Shown here one piece after another: positions 53,633-61,462 of a stretch of 64,000 bases of DNA (its first letter is position 1; the number at the start of each line of letters is the position of its first letter). The stretch covers positions 96,001 through 160,000 of the IMG/VR virus record IMGVR_UViG_3300029288_000080. One strand, 5' to 3'. The notes beneath the pieces are model-generated. The model was given only the letters and a program-made list of their open reading frames with translations. It searched no databases and was not told the DNA's origin. A program made the position numbers and the translations under genes. Source of the DNA: a virus (taxonomy: Duplodnaviria; Caudoviricetes).

Positions 53633-56611
53633 ATGCCAACTTCCCGTCTAACTCCCGGTCGTCCCGCCATCTGCCAAGCCTGCCCGCTCCAAGAATCAGC
53701 GGGGCTCACTCGTCACTGCTGTTCCGTCCAGCAGGGTCGTGACACCTCCCTGATGATCATCGGGGACCACCCGGTTGACCTACAGCCCCATGGGGCTGAG
53801 CCCTTCACTGACCCAGCGGGTCAGATGCTCCAGCGGGTCATGGGGCAGGTGACCCAAGGGAACAGTGGCGTCGCCTACGGGTACTGTGTGCGGTGCCGCC
53901 CGATGGACCGGGGCAAGCCTGACAAAACCCGCCCGGCCACCGCCACGGAGGCCAACCACTGCCGGGTCAACGTCGCGAAAGACCTGGCCCTGCTGAAGCC
54001 CAAACAAGTGGTGTTGCTGGGCCTCGGGGCTGCAAAACTCCTGGCTCAACTGCCCGATGGTTCGGCCGTGTCGGCCAAGGTTCAGTTGGGCGACCTGCGG
54101 GGCCGCGACCTCCACTGCACCGCCCACGACGGCACCAAGATCCCCGTGATCGTCACGTACGACCCGGAGTTCATCCAGCGGAACCCCACGGTCGCGGCGA
54201 CGTGGCGCGACGATTTCCTGCGGGCCTGGCTTCGGGGGTCCGGTCGGCTCCCAGACGATTCCCGTGACGGCAAAGTCTACACCCTCGACACCATTGAGAA
54301 GGTTAGGAAGTTTGCCCGGCGGGTCGCGAAACTAAAGCGTGGCGATATTTTGGTCCTGGACTACGAGACCGAGGGACTCGGCCGCGTGGAAAACAAGATC
54401 CTGACCGCTGGTTTTGCATTTGACCCGGACCACGCCTATGTGATCCCGATGCAGCACCAGGAAGCCCCGTGGTCAGGGCCCGAATACCGAGAAATCGTGG
54501 GCTTGATCAAGCAGATCCTGACCAAGCCGGCTCCCTACTGGATCGGGGGCCACAACCTCAAGTTCGAGTTGCAGGTAACCCGTGGGCAACTGGGTTTTGA
54601 GATCGACCTACCCTGCTGCGACACCATGTTGAGGGCCCATGCACTCAATCCCGACTACGGTCGGGTGGATAAAAAGTCTCAGGGCCACGACGACGATGCT
54701 GTTGACCAGATTGTAGACACCACCGGGGACATTCAGGTCGGGGGTTTCGGGCTCAAGAGCCAGTCCAAGGAATGCCTGAACTTTCACCACTATGAAGACG
54801 AAGATGTGGCCGCTACGGTCGGGCGCCGCAACGAAGCGAAGTTGGCGTTACTGCCGCTCGACAAGGTTATCCGGTACAACGGGATTGATGGCTTCGTGAC
54901 CTTCCGGCTGAACCACTACCAAGACGTCATGGCCGAGGCCATGGGGTACCGAAAAAAGTTGACTCGGTTGTGCCGTGGCATGCACACCAAGGTCTTGGCC
55001 GTCCTGGTAGAAATGGAAACCAACGGGATCCGGGTGGACAAAGAATACCTCCGGATGTTGCTCCACGACGATTCCATCGTGCAGACCCGAATGCAGGAGA
55101 TTTCCCAGGAGTTTTGTGCCCTGCCCTCGGTCCAGGAGGCCAATCGACGCCTCCTGGCCGACAGGTATGGTGGCCAGGCTGGCCTGTGGGGCCAAGGGGC
55201 TGGTGAATCCTGGGTGTTCTCGATGCGGCAAGCTCTGTCCAAGAAAATTTTGCTGATTGACGTCCTGGAGTTGGAGCCCCTAAAGCACACGGCCGCCGGG
55301 GCGGTGTCAATCGACAAAAAATTCCTGGAGAACTACGCCGGGGTCCCGGAAGTAGACCTTCTGGCCGAGTGGACCGCACTCGCAACGATCAAGTCCAGGT
55401 ATCTCGTCGGGACCAACAAGGTCATGCTGGCAGACCCGGACATGCGGGATGGGCGAGCCAGGGCGCAGTTCCGGCCAGCCGGCACCATCACGGGGCGGAT
55501 TTCGGCCGCCGGGATCAACGTCCTGAACGTGCCGAAAAAGGCCGAGGACGGGTCTAAGAAGGCGTCGGCCTCACTGATCAAGCGGATGTACATCTGCGAT
55601 CCTGGTCATGTGATGGTCTGCGGTGACTACTCGCAAGCTGAGGTCCGGTGGCTCGCGGCCCTGACGCAAGACCCCGATATGCTCAAGGCGTTCGGGGCTG
55701 CGTGGGATATGCGGGCCTTGTGTCTCAAGGACCCATCCCCTGAAAATCTCAAGCGGCTGGACGCCGAGGGTGACTTCCACAAGCAAACCGCCTCGATGGT
55801 GTTCGACGTCCCGATCTCCAAGGTTACGAAGGAGCAGCGAGGCCAGTCGAAAGGCGTGGTCTTTGGCCAAATTTATGGTCAAGGATTACCGGCACTTGCA
55901 GCGATCCTGAAGAAAACCAAGGCCCAGACCGAGGAGTTCATCACGAGGTTCTTCGCGCGCTTCCCCGTGGCCAAAGACGCCTTGGCCCAGATGGCCCAGG
56001 ACGGGTTTGAAAATGGGTTTGCCGAGTCCCCGACGGGCCGGCGCAAACAATTCGTCACCAAGATGATCGCGGGGGACGCCCAGGCTCTACAGTATTGTTC
56101 TGGTAAACTACGGTCGCTCCGGGGCCGTGAGGAGCGGGTGGCCCGCAACATGCCGATCCAGGGGATTTCCTCCGACATGAACCTGACGGCCTGCTACCGG
56201 ATCATCCAGTATTACCGACGACACAATCTTCCGTGGCGCCTGATCAACTCGGTCTACGACTCCATCATGCTGGAAGTACCGCGTCAAGATGCCGAGCACT
56301 GCGTCGAGGTGGTGCAGTCCATTATGGAACGGGAAGATTTGCTCGCGGGATTTGGGATTGACCCAGGACTCAGGTTCCTGGCGGAAATGTCCGTCGGGAC
56401 CCACTGGGGCAACCAGGTGGACATCACGGCAGGCGAGCAGCAGTGGAAGGTGGGGTGCAGGTCCTGCAAAAAGTCCCGCGAGGAGAAAAAGAAGCCGACC
56501 AACCATCGGTGCGAATCATGTGGGTCCACCGACGTATACCTCGAGTTGATCAAGGGGCCACATGATTTGGCGTTTAAGTGGCTGGATCGCCAACTCAGGG
56601 GCAAGGCGTGA
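53633..56611 (+). CDS. polA: Family A DNA polymerase with N-terminal family-4 UDG-like domain, 3'-5' exonuclease and C-terminal Zn ribbon
   Basis: Exo DYET, HNLKFE and YNGID; Pol motifs DYSQAE, R...K...FG..YG and VYDS. Confidence 0.92.
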   Translation: MPTSRLTPGRPAICQACPLQESAGLTRHCCSVQQGRDTSLMIIGDHPVDLQPHGAEPFTDPAGQMLQRVMGQVTQGNSGVAYGYCVRCRPMDRGKPDKTRPATATEANHCRVNVAKDLALLKPKQVVLLGLGAAKLLAQLPDGSAVSAKVQLGDLRGRDLHCTAHDGTKIPVIVTYDPEFIQRNPTVAATWRDDFLRAWLRGSGRLPDDSRDGKVYTLDTIEKVRKFARRVAKLKRGDILVLDYETEGLGRVENKILTAGFAFDPDHAYVIPMQHQEAPWSGPEYREIVGLIKQILTKPAPYWIGGHNLKFELQVTRGQLGFEIDLPCCDTMLRAHALNPDYGRVDKKSQGHDDDAVDQIVDTTGDIQVGGFGLKSQSKECLNFHHYEDEDVAATVGRRNEAKLALLPLDKVIRYNGIDGFVTFRLNHYQDVMAEAMGYRKKLTRLCRGMHTKVLAVLVEMETNGIRVDKEYLRMLLHDDSIVQTRMQEISQEFCALPSVQEANRRLLADRYGGQAGLWGQGAGESWVFSMRQALSKKILLIDVLELEPLKHTAAGAVSIDKKFLENYAGVPEVDLLAEWTALATIKSRYLVGTNKVMLADPDMRDGRARAQFRPAGTITGRISAAGINVLNVPKKAEDGSKKASASLIKRMYICDPGHVMVCGDYSQAEVRWLAALTQDPDMLKAFGAAWDMRALCLKDPSPENLKRLDAEGDFHKQTASMVFDVPISKVTKEQRGQSKGVVFGQIYGQGLPALAAILKKTKAQTEEFITRFFARFPVAKDALAQMAQDGFENGFAESPTGRRKQFVTKMIAGDAQALQYCSGKLRSLRGREERVARNMPIQGISSDMNLTACYRIIQYYRRHNLPWRLINSVYDSIMLEVPRQDAEHCVEVVQSIMEREDLLAGFGIDPGLRFLAEMSVGTHWGNQVDITAGEQQWKVGCRSCKKSREEKKKPTNHRCESCGSTDVYLELIKGPHDLAFKWLDRQLRGKA

Positions 56612-56829
56612 TCGAGTTACCGGTCAAGGTAGTGGACTGTGCTGTCTGCCATGCCGTGGATCAACTTATCTTGACCTTCGAGGCCACTGGGTTCGGAGCA
56701 CTTTATCGTGTGGTGTGCCCAGGATGTGGCTACTCGGCCCCGCCGAACAAAACCGAAGAAAAAGCCGTGGCCCGGTGGAACTCGTGCCAGTCCAGCCGCG
56801 GTAGGGTAAAACGAAATAAAGAAAAATGA
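56608..56829 (+). CDS. Lar-like (restriction alleviation family) Zn-ribbon protein
   Basis: CAVC...VVCPGCG...AVARWN. Confidence 0.55.
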   Translation: MIELPVKVVDCAVCHAVDQLILTFEATGFGALYRVVCPGCGYSAPPNKTEEKAVARWNSCQSSRGRVKRNKEK

Positions 56830-58064
56830 CATGGTTCATCACACCGCAGTTAATGCAGCAGTACCGTCTGGCTTGCGAGAAATCGCCTTGTTTGCCGGAG
56901 CAGGTGGAGGAATCCTCGGCGGACATCTCCTCGGGTGGAAAACAGTCTGCGCCGTCGAAATCACGCCGTACGCCCGGGAAGTCTTGTTCGCCCGACAGGC
57001 CGACGGAACTCTTGAACCCTTCCCCGTCTGGGACGACATCCGTACTTTTGACGGACGCGCTTGGCGAGGCTATTGTGACGTGGTTTCGGGAGGATTTCCT
57101 TGCCAGGATGTCAGCTCGGCCGGAAAAGGTGCCGGTATTGACGGCGAAAGATCAGGACTCTGGGGCGAGATGGCGCGGGTCATCGGTGAGGTGCAACCCC
57201 GATGGGTCTGGGTGGAAAATAGCCCATTGCTGGTTTCCAGAGGACTTGTCAGAGTCGTCCGTGACCTTACCACGCTGGGGTATAGTTGTGCGTGGGGACG
57301 TGTGGGAGCCTGGCAAGTCAGTGCCCCGCATCGTCGAGATCGATTCTGGCTCATCGGAAATCGTGAGTGCCCAGAGTAATGTCAGGGTTCCTTGGCCAAC
57401 CCCCATGGTCACGGATGCTAAAAACAAAGGTGGAAAAGGGCAACTACGCCGTAAGTATCCACCGCTCAATGCCGTCGTCGGGATTGAGCGGTCCAGCAAG
57501 GCTACCGAGGCGTTGGCCTGGCCAACGCCTCAGTCCCGAGACTACAAAGGGGCACCAGGAAAGGGCTGTGTTGAGCGTGGCGGACACCAGTCAAGTTTAC
57601 CAATGAAGATTGGGCAAGTCACCGAGGCGTTGGCCAGGCCAACGCCTCGGTCCTGTACCGCCACGGCCGCCACCATCACGGAGCAGGCACAACAATGTGC
57701 TGCTGACCGTTTCCCTAATCTGGAAACCGTGATGGTCCAGCGGGAACATGGGGCAGTCGGGGGTGCCTTGAATCCAGCATGGGTGGAGTGGCTCATGAAC
57801 TGGCCCGTGGGTTGGACCAACCTGAAACCTATCCGGGGATTTAACCGCTGGCGTCGCAAAACCATGGAATCCTCCTGGTGGGCCCGAGATCCAGCCGACG
57901 AACCCGATACCAAGGTGCCGCGCATATCCGTGGGGAAACTGCACCGAGTTGACCGACTCAAGGCCATCGGGAACGGTCAAGTGCCCCTCTGCTGTGCCTT
58001 GGCATTCCTGACGCTCCAGCGGGAGTTACTGACATTTTTGAAAAATCACCCTTCCGGTCGGTAA
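56826..58064 (+). CDS. C5 methyltransferase second subunit (WPTP modules, motifs IX-X), N-terminus overprinted on the catalytic subunit
   Basis: LNPAWVEWLMNWP and RLKAIGNGQVP; ATGA coupling to the upstream gene. Confidence 0.7.
   Translation: MTWFITPQLMQQYRLACEKSPCLPEQVEESSADISSGGKQSAPSKSRRTPGKSCSPDRPTELLNPSPSGTTSVLLTDALGEAIVTWFREDFLARMSARPEKVPVLTAKDQDSGARWRGSSVRCNPDGSGWKIAHCWFPEDLSESSVTLPRWGIVVRGDVWEPGKSVPRIVEIDSGSSEIVSAQSNVRVPWPTPMVTDAKNKGGKGQLRRKYPPLNAVVGIERSSKATEALAWPTPQSRDYKGAPGKGCVERGGHQSSLPMKIGQVTEALARPTPRSCTATAATITEQAQQCAADRFPNLETVMVQREHGAVGGALNPAWVEWLMNWPVGWTNLKPIRGFNRWRRKTMESSWWARDPADEPDTKVPRISVGKLHRVDRLKAIGNGQVPLCCALAFLTLQRELLTFLKNHPSGR
56831..57379 (+). CDS. C5 cytosine DNA methyltransferase, catalytic subunit (motifs I-VIII)
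   Basis: LFAGAGG, GGFPCQD, WVENS and HRRDRFW. Confidence 0.85.
   Translation: MVHHTAVNAAVPSGLREIALFAGAGGGILGGHLLGWKTVCAVEITPYAREVLFARQADGTLEPFPVWDDIRTFDGRAWRGYCDVVSGGFPCQDVSSAGKGAGIDGERSGLWGEMARVIGEVQPRWVWVENSPLLVSRGLVRVVRDLTTLGYSCAWGRVGAWQVSAPHRRDRFWLIGNRECPE
57504..57651. repeat. Two 31-bp palindromic direct repeats (57504-57534 and 57621-57651)
   Basis: ACCGAGGCGTTGGCC-W-GGCCAACGCCTCRGT, 117-bp period. Confidence 0.9.
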
Positions 58065-58094: not shown

Positions 58095-59663
58095 ATGCCT
58101 GACCAAAAATGTACCCCTTTTGATGAACAATGGCTTCGGCTCCAACCCTGGCAGGTTTCATTCCTGCTGGCTCCCTGTCGGTGTAAAGCCCCGGTCAAGA
58201 TGGTGTGGACCTTGCCCGGAGATTTCCCGGCCATTATCTGCACCACCTGTAACTACGGGATTGTCGGCGACACCGTCGAACAGGTGGTGCTGCGGCACAA
58301 CCATGAGCGTGCCGTTGTCTCCGACGTCAAGTCCTCGCATTTCCCCACTGCTGACCTACAACTCCATTACGCCGTGGACCTCTTGGTCGCGCTGTTGCCC
58401 TGTCGAGAAGTCCAGGACGGCATCGATGCCCTGGTCCACCAGGGAAAACTCCCGGCCGACAAACCCTACTGTGTCCATCGGGCTGGCCCGGCCCATTGTG
58501 CTGGGTTGGAAAAAGACTTCGCTGAGTTGAGCGGCACCCTGGCCAACCTGGTCTTGAAGGATGCCAAAGCCGGTAGCATTCTGAAATCCGGCCAGACCGT
58601 GGAGCAGGCCAAAGCACTGGACGACGCAAGTCATAAATACTGGTCTGAGATCAACGAACGGGCCAAAAAGAACGTTCAAGAGCATCCCGACACCGTAGAC
58701 TTGGATAATGCGCGGGGGAAAAAAGCCGCCCAAGCCAAACTGGCCAAGATGTCCCGTGAACAGATCTTGGTCGGGATGTCGCTCAAGGATTTTTATTCCA
58801 CTGAATGTGGTGCAATCCCGAAAGTCAGCGAGGCCGAATGGAGAGTCCTCATCCAGGACCGTTTGAAGCAACTGGACGAGCTGGACCGCCGCGTTGCCGA
58901 GAAAAAGGCCAAGATGGCCACACCGTCGGGCCTCAAGACCGCCACGGTGAAAAAGCCGACCAAGACGACGGTCAAGAAGGGCGTGGTGCCGGCACCACCG
59001 GCCCGTAAATCCATCCAGGCCAGGGTGCCGTGCATCGCCGACGAGAACGAGAAAATCCAGGCCATGCACCTGCCGCCCAAGGGGTCGATAATCTTGGTGC
59101 TCGGTAGCGACGAGGCAGTTGCCGCCCAGCAGGCTGCCCAGAAGACCAAGGTTCTTGCCGAGCAAGACAAGGCCAAGGAGCAGGACGACCATGATCCCAA
59201 GGCTACCGAGGCACTCCAGACCAAGCTCCGGTCAATCGCGAAGGTTGCACTGCAGCGAAGCGGTAACATCCTGGTCAAGTCCCAGACCCAAGTGATCCGG
59301 GTGCTGTATCGTGAACAGGGTAACCTGTACGAAATCTCAAGCATCCTGGGGAATCCCCACGGATTCGTGGTGCAGCGGGTCGTGTATGTGGCGGGGGTTT
59401 CAAATGTCCCCACTAAACTGCCCGGCCAAGACATGGAAGCGGTCCTGGGGATCGCGACCCCCGGGCCCAACAACGAGATGAACAACACCGTCTGGTATGA
59501 CCGGATTGACCTACGGCCCCGCGACGGTACCGTCGCGGCAGGACCGTCGCTGCATCTTTGCTGTCACAATGTTGAAGCCCAGGTTTCCGCTGGCCCCACG
59601 TTAGCCTCTATCGTTGACACCACCAAGCCGGCTGAGCCGGAGAAAGACCAGTCCAATGCGTAG
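58095..59663 (+). CDS. Hypothetical multi-domain protein with N-terminal Zn ribbon
   Basis: AAGGA RBS; CRC...CTTC; 522 aa. Confidence 0.65.
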   Translation: MPDQKCTPFDEQWLRLQPWQVSFLLAPCRCKAPVKMVWTLPGDFPAIICTTCNYGIVGDTVEQVVLRHNHERAVVSDVKSSHFPTADLQLHYAVDLLVALLPCREVQDGIDALVHQGKLPADKPYCVHRAGPAHCAGLEKDFAELSGTLANLVLKDAKAGSILKSGQTVEQAKALDDASHKYWSEINERAKKNVQEHPDTVDLDNARGKKAAQAKLAKMSREQILVGMSLKDFYSTECGAIPKVSEAEWRVLIQDRLKQLDELDRRVAEKKAKMATPSGLKTATVKKPTKTTVKKGVVPAPPARKSIQARVPCIADENEKIQAMHLPPKGSIILVLGSDEAVAAQQAAQKTKVLAEQDKAKEQDDHDPKATEALQTKLRSIAKVALQRSGNILVKSQTQVIRVLYREQGNLYEISSILGNPHGFVVQRVVYVAGVSNVPTKLPGQDMEAVLGIATPGPNNEMNNTVWYDRIDLRPRDGTVAAGPSLHLCCHNVEAQVSAGPTLASIVDTTKPAEPEKDQSNA

Positions 59664-60608: not shown

Positions 60609-60655
60609 TCCCAACCATTAAGCTAGATTTAATGGTTCCGCACCCCGAGGTCCAG

Positions 60656-61462
60656 ATGGCCAAAAAGCGAAACGACGAAGAACAATGGCGTGATGTCCCT
60701 GGATACGAGGGTCTGTACCAAGTTTCTTCGTGGGGCAAAGTCAAAAGTCTAAGCCGCCAAACCCGGAATGGCCCAGGTGACAACCACTGGATGTGGTCCA
60801 AAGACCGGATTTTGGCTGCACCAATAGATGCTCGCGGATATCGCTATGTAGGACTACCGCGTTTTGCTGCTGACGGACAGGCCACCTGCACGTATAAAAA
60901 TCATCGCGTGCACTTACTTGTCCTGGCAGCATTCGTGGGGCCCTTACCCCAGGACCAGATGGGCCGGCATTTAGACAACAATAAACTAAACAACAGATTA
61001 GACAATCTTGCCTATGGAACCCACCAAGACAACATGAACGACAAGTTCGTTCATGGCACTAATCCAGCAGGTTCAAAAAATCCTGGGAGTAAACTAAGCG
61101 AAGACGATGTATTGGCGATACGAAATGCTTTTGTTCGTGGTGCCACCCAAACCAGTCTAGCGCTAGAATACCACGTGAGCGTCGGTAGCGTGTGCAATAT
61201 CGTGCATGGCAAGTCATGGCAGCATGTCACGATGCCACCTAAGCTGCTGCGGTACTTAGAACAGCACCCTGTTTCAGCAAGCTACCGTCACCGCGGTGAC
61301 AGACGAGTCATGACTGAAGCGCAGGTCGTAGAGATACGACAATGGTATGATCGGCATAAAAAGTCCGTCGCGAGCACCGCGCGGCACTTTAGCCTTCCGT
61401 ATGGCAGCGTAAGAGGCATCATTACTGGTCGTACCTGGCGATCCTTGCTGGAGCAAAAATAA
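60656..61462 (+). CDS. NUMOD4-HNH homing endonuclease with two HTH domains
   Basis: EQWRDVPGYEGLYQVS, VHLLV and RHLDNNKLNNRLDNL; lower GC. Confidence 0.88.
   Translation: MAKKRNDEEQWRDVPGYEGLYQVSSWGKVKSLSRQTRNGPGDNHWMWSKDRILAAPIDARGYRYVGLPRFAADGQATCTYKNHRVHLLVLAAFVGPLPQDQMGRHLDNNKLNNRLDNLAYGTHQDNMNDKFVHGTNPAGSKNPGSKLSEDDVLAIRNAFVRGATQTSLALEYHVSVGSVCNIVHGKSWQHVTMPPKLLRYLEQHPVSASYRHRGDRRVMTEAQVVEIRQWYDRHKKSVASTARHFSLPYGSVRGIITGRTWRSLLEQK

Follow-up and report, generated by a model that had tools for sequence, protein, structure and literature searches.

Palindromes at the recognition-module junctions of a two-frame phage C5-methyltransferase gene: anatomy, paired changes and a possible origin by template switching

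Phage methyltransferases are a main escape route from host restriction, and the diversification of their specificity is poorly known. The question raised by the locus described here is what long DNA palindromes are doing exactly at the boundaries between the recognition modules of such an enzyme. The DNA analysed (called the window in this text) is a stretch of 64,000 nucleotides (nt) from a virus of the Caudoviricetes, positions 96,001 to 160,000 of the IMG/VR record IMGVR_UViG_3300029288_000080, and the gene concerned codes for a C5-cytosine methyltransferase in two overlapping frames, with a catalytic half (alpha) and a half carrying the modules (beta). The locus shows a very modular recognition region plus, in one lineage, palindromes at the module junctions which appear to maintain themselves. 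The anatomy of these palindromes, their conservation with compensation in a second phage, two flips of their central bases and the rarity of the Arg which opens one module are matters of observation; as to their origin, we lean towards replication template switching, which would both make the junction palindromes and keep them perfect.

The elements in question are located as follows:

57504 to 57534, unstranded: junction palindrome 1, 31 base pairs (bp), with 15-nt arms, one C.A mismatch and T 57519 at the centre
57621 to 57651, unstranded: junction palindrome 2, 31 bp, with perfect 15-nt arms and A 57636 at the centre
57461 to 57492, unstranded: a third hairpin (hp3), with 14-nt arms, one G.G mismatch and the loop TCGT at 57475-57478
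57393 to 57518, + strand: module 1 in translation, of the WPTPMVTDAKN (DAKN) type, closest to the sixth module of the related locus L081
57519 to 57635, + strand: module 2, of the WPTPQSRDYKG type, a 117-nt in-frame unit between both palindromes
57636 to 57767, + strand: module 3, of the PTPRSC...FPNLETVM type, the last before motif IX, with an Arg start where Trp is usual

A preliminary description of the window had placed two 31-bp palindromes 117 bp apart, one perfect and one with a single mismatch, within modules lying in the target-recognition position of a methyltransferase, with a central T in one palindrome and A in the other that change a conserved Trp to Arg. Both palindromes were found where they had been placed, in what is indeed the variable region of a C5-methyltransferase: T 57519 is the first base of TGG, the Trp codon opening module 2, and A 57636 begins AGG, an Arg codon at a position occupied by Trp in relatives. 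The hairpin at 57461-57492 and the two-frame split of the enzyme go beyond that description. In both palindromes the right arm codes the conserved module start (PTP, R/Q, S), and the left arm, its reverse complement, codes the linker TEALA. Folded as DNA, palindrome 2 reaches -18.9 kcal/mol (z -8.0) and hp3 -16 kcal/mol (z -7.2); imperfect pairs in the hairpins are limited to C.A, G.G and one T.G, with no strand preference. The whole record of 177,603 bases contains 11 palindromes with arms of at least 12 nt, the three longest being precisely these, within 191 bases.

That the palindromes are due to chance or to faulty assembly may be regarded as refuted. Fold-back artefacts are able to create palindromes in assemblies, but none of the shuffles of the window yielded a palindrome match like the two of 31 bp, an independent Logan assembly is identical over 7.2 kb and has the same A allele as the window, and a different phage, from another run, has homologous hairpins with compensatory changes.

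Palindromes 1 and 2 together constitute a 33-nt direct repeat (94% identical), and the minimum-energy RNA fold of 57440-57670 pairs one with the other, looping out module 2 (z -7.4). It is scarcely credible, on the model of the translational bypassing of T4 gene 60, that ribosomes leave the mRNA at palindrome 1 and resume on the identical codons of palindrome 2, yielding beta with and without module 2 from one mRNA. Such hopping may be inferred from the identical codons, placed in a strong stem, that bound the in-frame 117-nt unit on either side, but no stop codon follows the would-be take-off site, there is no known nascent-peptide signal, and the palindromes which flank module 2 in L081 are unlike each other in sequence.

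L081 is the sole close relative found. This Logan contig of 166 kb is syntenic with the window, and up to module 2 their DNA is 78% identical. The hairpins of L081, at 1998-2028, 2105-2127, 2465-2496 and 2499-2529, represent four of the seven palindromes of its 8.9-kb locus, and these four are in the variable region. All three window hairpins have counterparts in L081, and six compensatory double changes keep the Watson-Crick pairs; the P values given here refer to the pairing retained under the same number of random substitutions. Thus, palindrome 1 differs from 1998-2028 by one compensatory double change, C-G to T-A. Palindrome 2 and its counterpart at 2499-2529, the homologous junction according to BLAST, show two double changes with the inner pairs lost (P 0.008 for the pairing retained after eight random substitutions). 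The counterpart of hp3 at 2465-2496 differs from it at 9 of 32 bases and still forms 14 of 14 pairs (P<5e-6), through three double changes and one repaired mismatch; 5 of the 12 encoded residues are altered by these changes, so pairing has been preserved at the protein's cost. Furthermore, L081 2105-2127 is situated at the same junction as palindrome 2, with different arms and a shorter centre, and is again perfect: its centre is the middle base of CGG in RRRTPRS, the complement of which would give CCG and restore PTP. The block in which both phages differ, 160 nt in the window versus 508 nt in L081, begins at the palindrome after module 2, and the positions of the hairpins relative to the alpha stop are not the same in the two genomes.

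Pairing kept in this way could also result from selection on the hairpins as RNA or DNA structures, with a role in mRNA processing or stabilisation, in ribosome pausing between modules or in the binding of a dimeric protein, the flips described below being incidental; we judge this unlikely, though it is an alternative of some substance. The three hairpins have been kept between phages just 78% identical in the surrounding DNA, pairing is retained despite amino-acid changes, the clustering in one gene region is strong in both genomes, the predicted folds are very stable and, as a possible RNA role, the two palindromes could form a 31-bp duplex suited to RNase III. Nevertheless, about 160 other family members lack the hairpins, which the enzyme can therefore do without; the Rfam search gave no family match, and no terminator-like tail is present at the hairpins; moreover, their positions relative to the alpha stop are unlike between the two phages. 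Nor do the stems, with perfect arms and a 1-nt spacer, contain bulges or the G.U pairs that RNA stems under selection usually have, and near-perfect arms around a 1-nt spacer look like the product of mutational homogenisation rather than like an RNA stem maintained by selection.

In addition to the arms, the spacers have changed in a particular way. Where hp3 in the window has the loop TCGT, its L081 counterpart has the exact reverse complement, ACGA, a change from Val-Val to Asp-Asp. The second case is provided by P0002, a 410-amino-acid (aa) protein from a separate 132-kb Joint Genome Institute (JGI) contig, belonging to a near-identical genome, which has Trp where the window has Arg. Over about 410 residues no other amino-acid substitution is seen, and this one coincides with one of the two centre codons; since Trp has one codon, the P0002 genome has T at the centre of palindrome 2. 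In both places, therefore, the spacer has been replaced by its exact reverse complement (at palindrome 2, with the T inferred from the Trp), and the T/A polymorphism which had been predicted at 57636 does occur.

The Arg is rare: before the last PTP, the residue is W in 87, F in 25, L in 5, Y in 4, M in 1 and R in 1 of 123 loci, the sole R being that of the window. The Arg allele is probably derived, and it probably weakens or disables the last module. P0002 itself reads as if one G were missing from the GGGG run at 57277-57280 (+ strand), so that alpha, read through motif VI, is fused to the beta frame before motif VIII, a frameshift which, by removing this motif, probably kills the enzyme. 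Both near-identical genomes may hence carry damaged copies of the gene, each by a different change.

The preliminary description interpreted flipping as a device for switching modules. Its fullest version would be an evolved, reversible and recombinase-free switch, in which flips of the centres by template switching would turn recognition modules on and off (Trp/Arg in the window, Pro/Arg in L081) and the repeats would drop or multiply modules; we consider it improbable. Equally improbable is its supposed consequence, that the phage population would hold methylases of several specificities against varied host restriction. In its favour, the predicted T/A polymorphism was found between two near-identical genomes, the inversion of the hp3 loop has occurred, and in both phages the palindrome after module 2 is centred on a critical motif base whose complement would restore the consensus. 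To this may be added that the block differing between the phages (160 versus 508 nt) begins at that same palindrome, that module arrays are combinatorial across the family and that the gene adjoins a Lar-like restriction-alleviation ORF (open reading frame), whose match is below the Pfam cut-off. On the other side, a single polymorphism has been seen, and the other genome involved, that of P0002, is also frameshifted, with motif VIII lost; the family shuffles its modules without palindromes; the genome has no silent module copies by tblastn; a stop codon appears immediately when the segment between the palindromes is inverted; and a flipped loop in the fourth L081 hairpin would create one too. 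The flip proposed in the preliminary description is real, as the Trp of P0002 and the inverted hp3 loop demonstrate; programmed diversification is a possibility, and a mutational by-product agrees with the evidence no less well than an evolved switch. Two further candidates were rejected: an inversion switch acting between the two palindromes, whose inverted reading begins with a stop codon, and a link to an IS605-type element elsewhere in the window, whose ends do not share the palindrome arms.

Template switching during replication, the explanation that we favour, has known precedents. Between the arms of inverted repeats, it homogenises the arms, extends stems by insertion and inverts spacers (PMC8604942, PMC8794818); the spacer inversion is reversible, takes place in coding genes, causes amino-acid replacements and affects mostly arms >9 bp (PMC8604942, PMC8794818). 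A mechanism of this type had been taken for an undescribed one in the preliminary description, but the flip as such, an inversion of the spacer by template switching, has already been published for coding genes. In the present locus, the DNA polymerase would switch template between the arms, thereby creating the palindrome and homogenising its arms. The left arm, coding TEALA, would be an inserted reverse copy of the module start, and an insertion is what it looks like, since L081 and L167 have a linker before module 3 that is shorter than the window's by five to six residues. The copy at one junction would then have spread as modules duplicated, and from that time on the palindromes would renew themselves as products of template switching, their middle bases flipping in the process. 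Such a process accounts for the paired changes with respect to L081, for the inverted hp3 loop and for the T/A at the centre of palindrome 2. Moreover, because the palindromes are 33-bp direct repeats 117 bp apart and able to pair, loss or duplication of module 2 in frame is to be expected; this gain or loss of modules, an instability deduced from the repeats, is likely a side effect of the palindromes that template switching would make.

Several points weigh against this explanation. The signal is carried by just two independent sequences, the window and L081, and one protein variant, for which reason neither the rates nor the direction of change can be measured. That one 191-bp stretch contains the genome's three longest palindromes exceeds the generic mutational expectation, and such clustering demands extra assumptions, namely linkers tolerant of change and a junction palindrome copied along with the modules. 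Compensatory changes would be produced by selection on the hairpin too, the polymorphism of P0002 is known from the protein sequence alone, and the coincidence of that substitution with a palindrome centre was assessed post hoc. Finally, in both phages the palindrome after module 2 has its centre on a key motif residue in a non-consensus state (AGG for TGG in the window; CGG for CCG in L081), which hints at more than accident.

The significance of the locus depends on how often such events take place. If flips and repeat-mediated insertions or deletions are frequent, they would offer a simple, replication-based way to vary or silence recognition modules; if flips are rare, the locus would still be an unusually clear natural case of template switching shaping a viral coding region, in which paired changes can be seen alongside inverted spacers. 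Were the flips to act as a true switch, this would represent a new kind of phase variation of DNA-methylation specificity.

The next question is whether the palindromes belong to the enzyme family or to this phage. They were surveyed in 162 relatives, with codon-shuffled beta ORFs as controls: 19 palindromes with arms of at least 10 nt were observed in 158 kb of beta ORFs, compared with 12-25 in the controls, and the window and L081 account for six of these 19, among them all the longest. The palindromes are not a feature of the family, being specific to this phage lineage. Their use as a general device of the enzyme family, considered as a separate candidate, was ruled out by this lack of enrichment among the relatives surveyed. 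Exact-pattern scans for the junction palindromes in viral, metagenome and genome collections revealed no carrier beyond the window's own genome. One unrelated family member, L169, has a palindrome of its own over the WPTP motif (2717-2745, 11-nt arms), with centre and arms different from those of the window, and so palindromes of this sort seem to arise sporadically at that motif.

Modularity itself is a different matter. The variable (DNA-recognition) region of beta is, as read from the translations, an array of modules of 30-45 residues, each opened by an aromatic residue plus PTP. In the window, the starts are at 57393 (WPTP), 57519 (WPTP) and 57636 (RPTP), spaced by 42 and 39 codons, in the frame of 56826 to 58064; the type of module 2 recurs in L081, L165 and L167. 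Of 373 modules, 66% have Trp ahead of PTP, and 95% have an aromatic or aliphatic residue there. Rough typing of the modules distinguishes 111 arrays, of 0-8 modules each, among 167 loci, and more than 10 consecutive PTP modules were found in two beta-frame proteins, P0085 (696 aa) and P0028 (661 aa), the usual number in the family being 1-5. Across the family, then, the variable region is strongly modular by sequence, with number and order varying widely. The preliminary description had proposed that homologs be surveyed for module number and for palindromes: module number does vary among them, but the palindromes of the window recur in just one relative and are therefore not the source of the family's modularity.

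In the AlphaFold2 (AF2) model of the C-terminal half of beta, the modules have a predicted local distance difference test (pLDDT) score of about 50, so the model is uninformative in this respect, and no solved structure was matched by the modules in a PDB sequence profile search or with Foldseek against PDB. Silent module copies elsewhere in the genome were looked for with tblastn and none was obtained, the only hit being an opposite-strand self-match caused by the palindromes.

The enzyme which bears these modules is split over two frames, motifs I-VIII being in one and the PTP modules and motifs IX/X in the +1 frame:

56831 to 57379, + strand: alpha ORF, 182 aa, catalytic N-terminal half of the C5-cytosine methyltransferase, with its stop at 57377-57379
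56891 to 56908, + strand: alpha motif I (FAGAGGG), conserved in alignment A2
57092 to 57106, + strand: alpha motif IV (GFPCQ), conserved in alignment A2
57215 to 57226, + strand: alpha motif VI (ENSP), conserved in alignment A2
57329 to 57343, + strand: alpha motif VIII (HRRDR), conserved in alignment A2, the alpha stop coming after it
56826 to 58064, + strand: beta ORF, 412 aa, in the +1 frame, with its ATG 5 nt upstream of the alpha ATG
57768 to 57818, + strand: motif IX-like stretch (LNPAWVEWLMNWPVGWT), near-invariant columns in alignment A1, with AF2 pLDDT >80 onward
57954 to 57986, + strand: motif X (RLKAIGNGQVP), in which G203, N204, G205, Q206 and V207 are invariant in A1

Alpha matches PF00145 (E 5.5e-29, profile positions 3-163 of 324), and the large-domain motifs I, IV, VI and VIII of C5-cytosine DNA methyltransferases of this family are all found in it. 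It also matches phrog_363, labelled DNA methyltransferase (E 1e-51), and TIGR00675 with E 3e-19 and 69.7 bits, under the curated cut-off of 100.65. The first 180 or so codons of beta overprint alpha, the PTP modules, motif IX and motif X coming after them; a stop-free +1 frame is obtained in just 1% of synonymous recodings of alpha. Residues 85-397 of beta match phrog_1008, "DNA methyltransferase" (E 4e-24). In its C-terminal half, GNGQVP is invariant and the WVEWLMxWP stretch near-invariant (alignment A1), and we take 57768-57818 to be motif IX by its resemblance to the RE..RLQGFPD pattern. Profile searches of Pfam, NCBIfam and PDB gave no match for this half, and so the assignment of motifs IX and X rests on motif patterns and phrog_1008; a tblastn search of it against GenBank phages likewise returned no match.

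We infer that alpha and beta would work as a two-chain heterodimer. A frameshift fusing alpha to beta at the alpha stop was considered and rejected, there being no slippery site and the +1 frame having an ATG of its own from which it is open, which makes two separate chains the likelier arrangement.

The two-frame layout is present in about 160 related loci of viral and metagenome collections, where the PTP modules are read in the +1 frame relative to the N-terminal half; across them, the alpha frame is open for some 300 codons, the +1 frame for some 300 and the third frame for some 40. Two classes can be distinguished. In class B, to which most loci belong (L024 and L001 among them), motif X returns to the alpha frame, leaving IX in beta; in class A (the window, L081, L165 and about ten other loci), alpha ends past motif VIII and beta holds both IX and X. 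At L024 3291-3417, as well as in other class B loci, one stretch of DNA serves twice, for the sequence leading into motif X (alpha frame) and for the motif IX sequence WVEWLMGWP.GWT (+1 frame), so that the two most conserved C-terminal motifs are dual-coded in most relatives. A third layout of the split is seen at L003 (2251-3378), where the N-half ORF stops and the part with PTP, IX and X is a separate, non-overlapping ORF in the same frame, the +1 frame over the N-half being still open. As a caution for annotation, gene callers report only one of the two overlapping chains.

With regard to the surroundings, the ORF at 56578-56829, just upstream, has a weak match to Lar (PF14354, E 0.007, below the Pfam cut-off), and the downstream 522-aa ORF (58095-59663) has an N-terminus with a similar four-Cys pattern, as seen by eye; the methyltransferase may sit in a small anti-restriction cluster. 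An ORF resembling HNH/NUMOD4 homing endonucleases lies nearby in the window (60632-61462), and a different HNH-like ORF is found directly upstream of the methyltransferase gene in L081 (690-1262). In the whole genome (G000, 177,603 bases), several palindromic hexamers are strongly under-represented: AGGCCT occurs 4 times against 38.7 expected, CTTAAG 0 against 5, GAGCTC 2 against 14 and TACGTA 2 against 11, with GGCC, TGGCCA, CGGCCG and CCWGG at the expected frequency. Such depletion suggests the avoidance of particular host restriction sites.

How does the locus compare with known systems? As regards the split, M.AquI (CYCGRG) consists of two chains, the larger or first one having motifs I-VIII and the other IX-X (PMC3404938). 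The window, as well as L081 and L165, shows the same distribution, alpha carrying I-VIII and beta IX-X. The differences are that the variable region of M.AquI is shared between the chains, whereas that of the window is wholly in beta; that the beta ORF of the window starts 5 nt before alpha and overprints all of it in the +1 frame; and that palindromes are not reported for M.AquI. In M.EcoHK31I (YGGCCR), activity requires two chains, one of which is read from the DNA of the other in a different frame (PMC2836561, PMC3404938). The window also codes one chain in another frame of the same DNA, and most relatives (class B, such as L024 and L001) have the very split of M.EcoHK31I, with I-VIII and X in alpha and IX in beta. 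In contrast, the alpha of the window stops after VIII and its beta has X too; alpha (56831-57379) lies within the beta ORF (56826-58064), whereas beta lies within the alpha gene in M.EcoHK31I; and the recognition domain of the latter is placed in alpha, a comparison made by description.

As regards the modules, the C5-methyltransferases of Bacillus phages (SPR, phi3T, rho11s, H2 and phiBssHII) have tandem short recognition domains between motifs VIII and IX, which vary in number and order and include inactive "pseudo" domains. The PTP arrays resemble them as phage enzymes with tandem modules in varying number and order, but the Bacillus phage enzymes are single polypeptides read in one frame, and the PTP module is a putative unit of specificity. 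No likeness of the PTP modules to the recognition domains of these multispecific enzymes was found in sequence or fold, as covered by the PDB profile search and Foldseek with modules at a pLDDT of about 50. To our knowledge, the arrays of more than 10 modules exceed anything described for the Bacillus phage group.

As regards the palindromes, inverted repeats in the specificity DNA of Type I hsdS genes, the so-called epigenetic invertons, change the methylation specificity within a population (PMC7672463, PMC4948785, PMC7394358), and it is in this way that the switch suggested by the preliminary description would work. The hsdS invertons, however, use an invertase and swap whole alternative half-genes, whereas no recombinase adjoins the methyltransferase gene of the window, its genome has no alternative module copies, and inverting the segment between its palindromes would truncate the protein. 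The likeness to inverted repeats that evolve by template switching is found in the paired arm changes and reverse-complemented spacers of the window, L081 and P0002. The published events are scattered in yeast genes and RNA genes (PMC8604942, PMC8794818), whereas a single phage gene here has three or four repeats crowded into its module junctions, and the spacer falls on a codon of a conserved motif.

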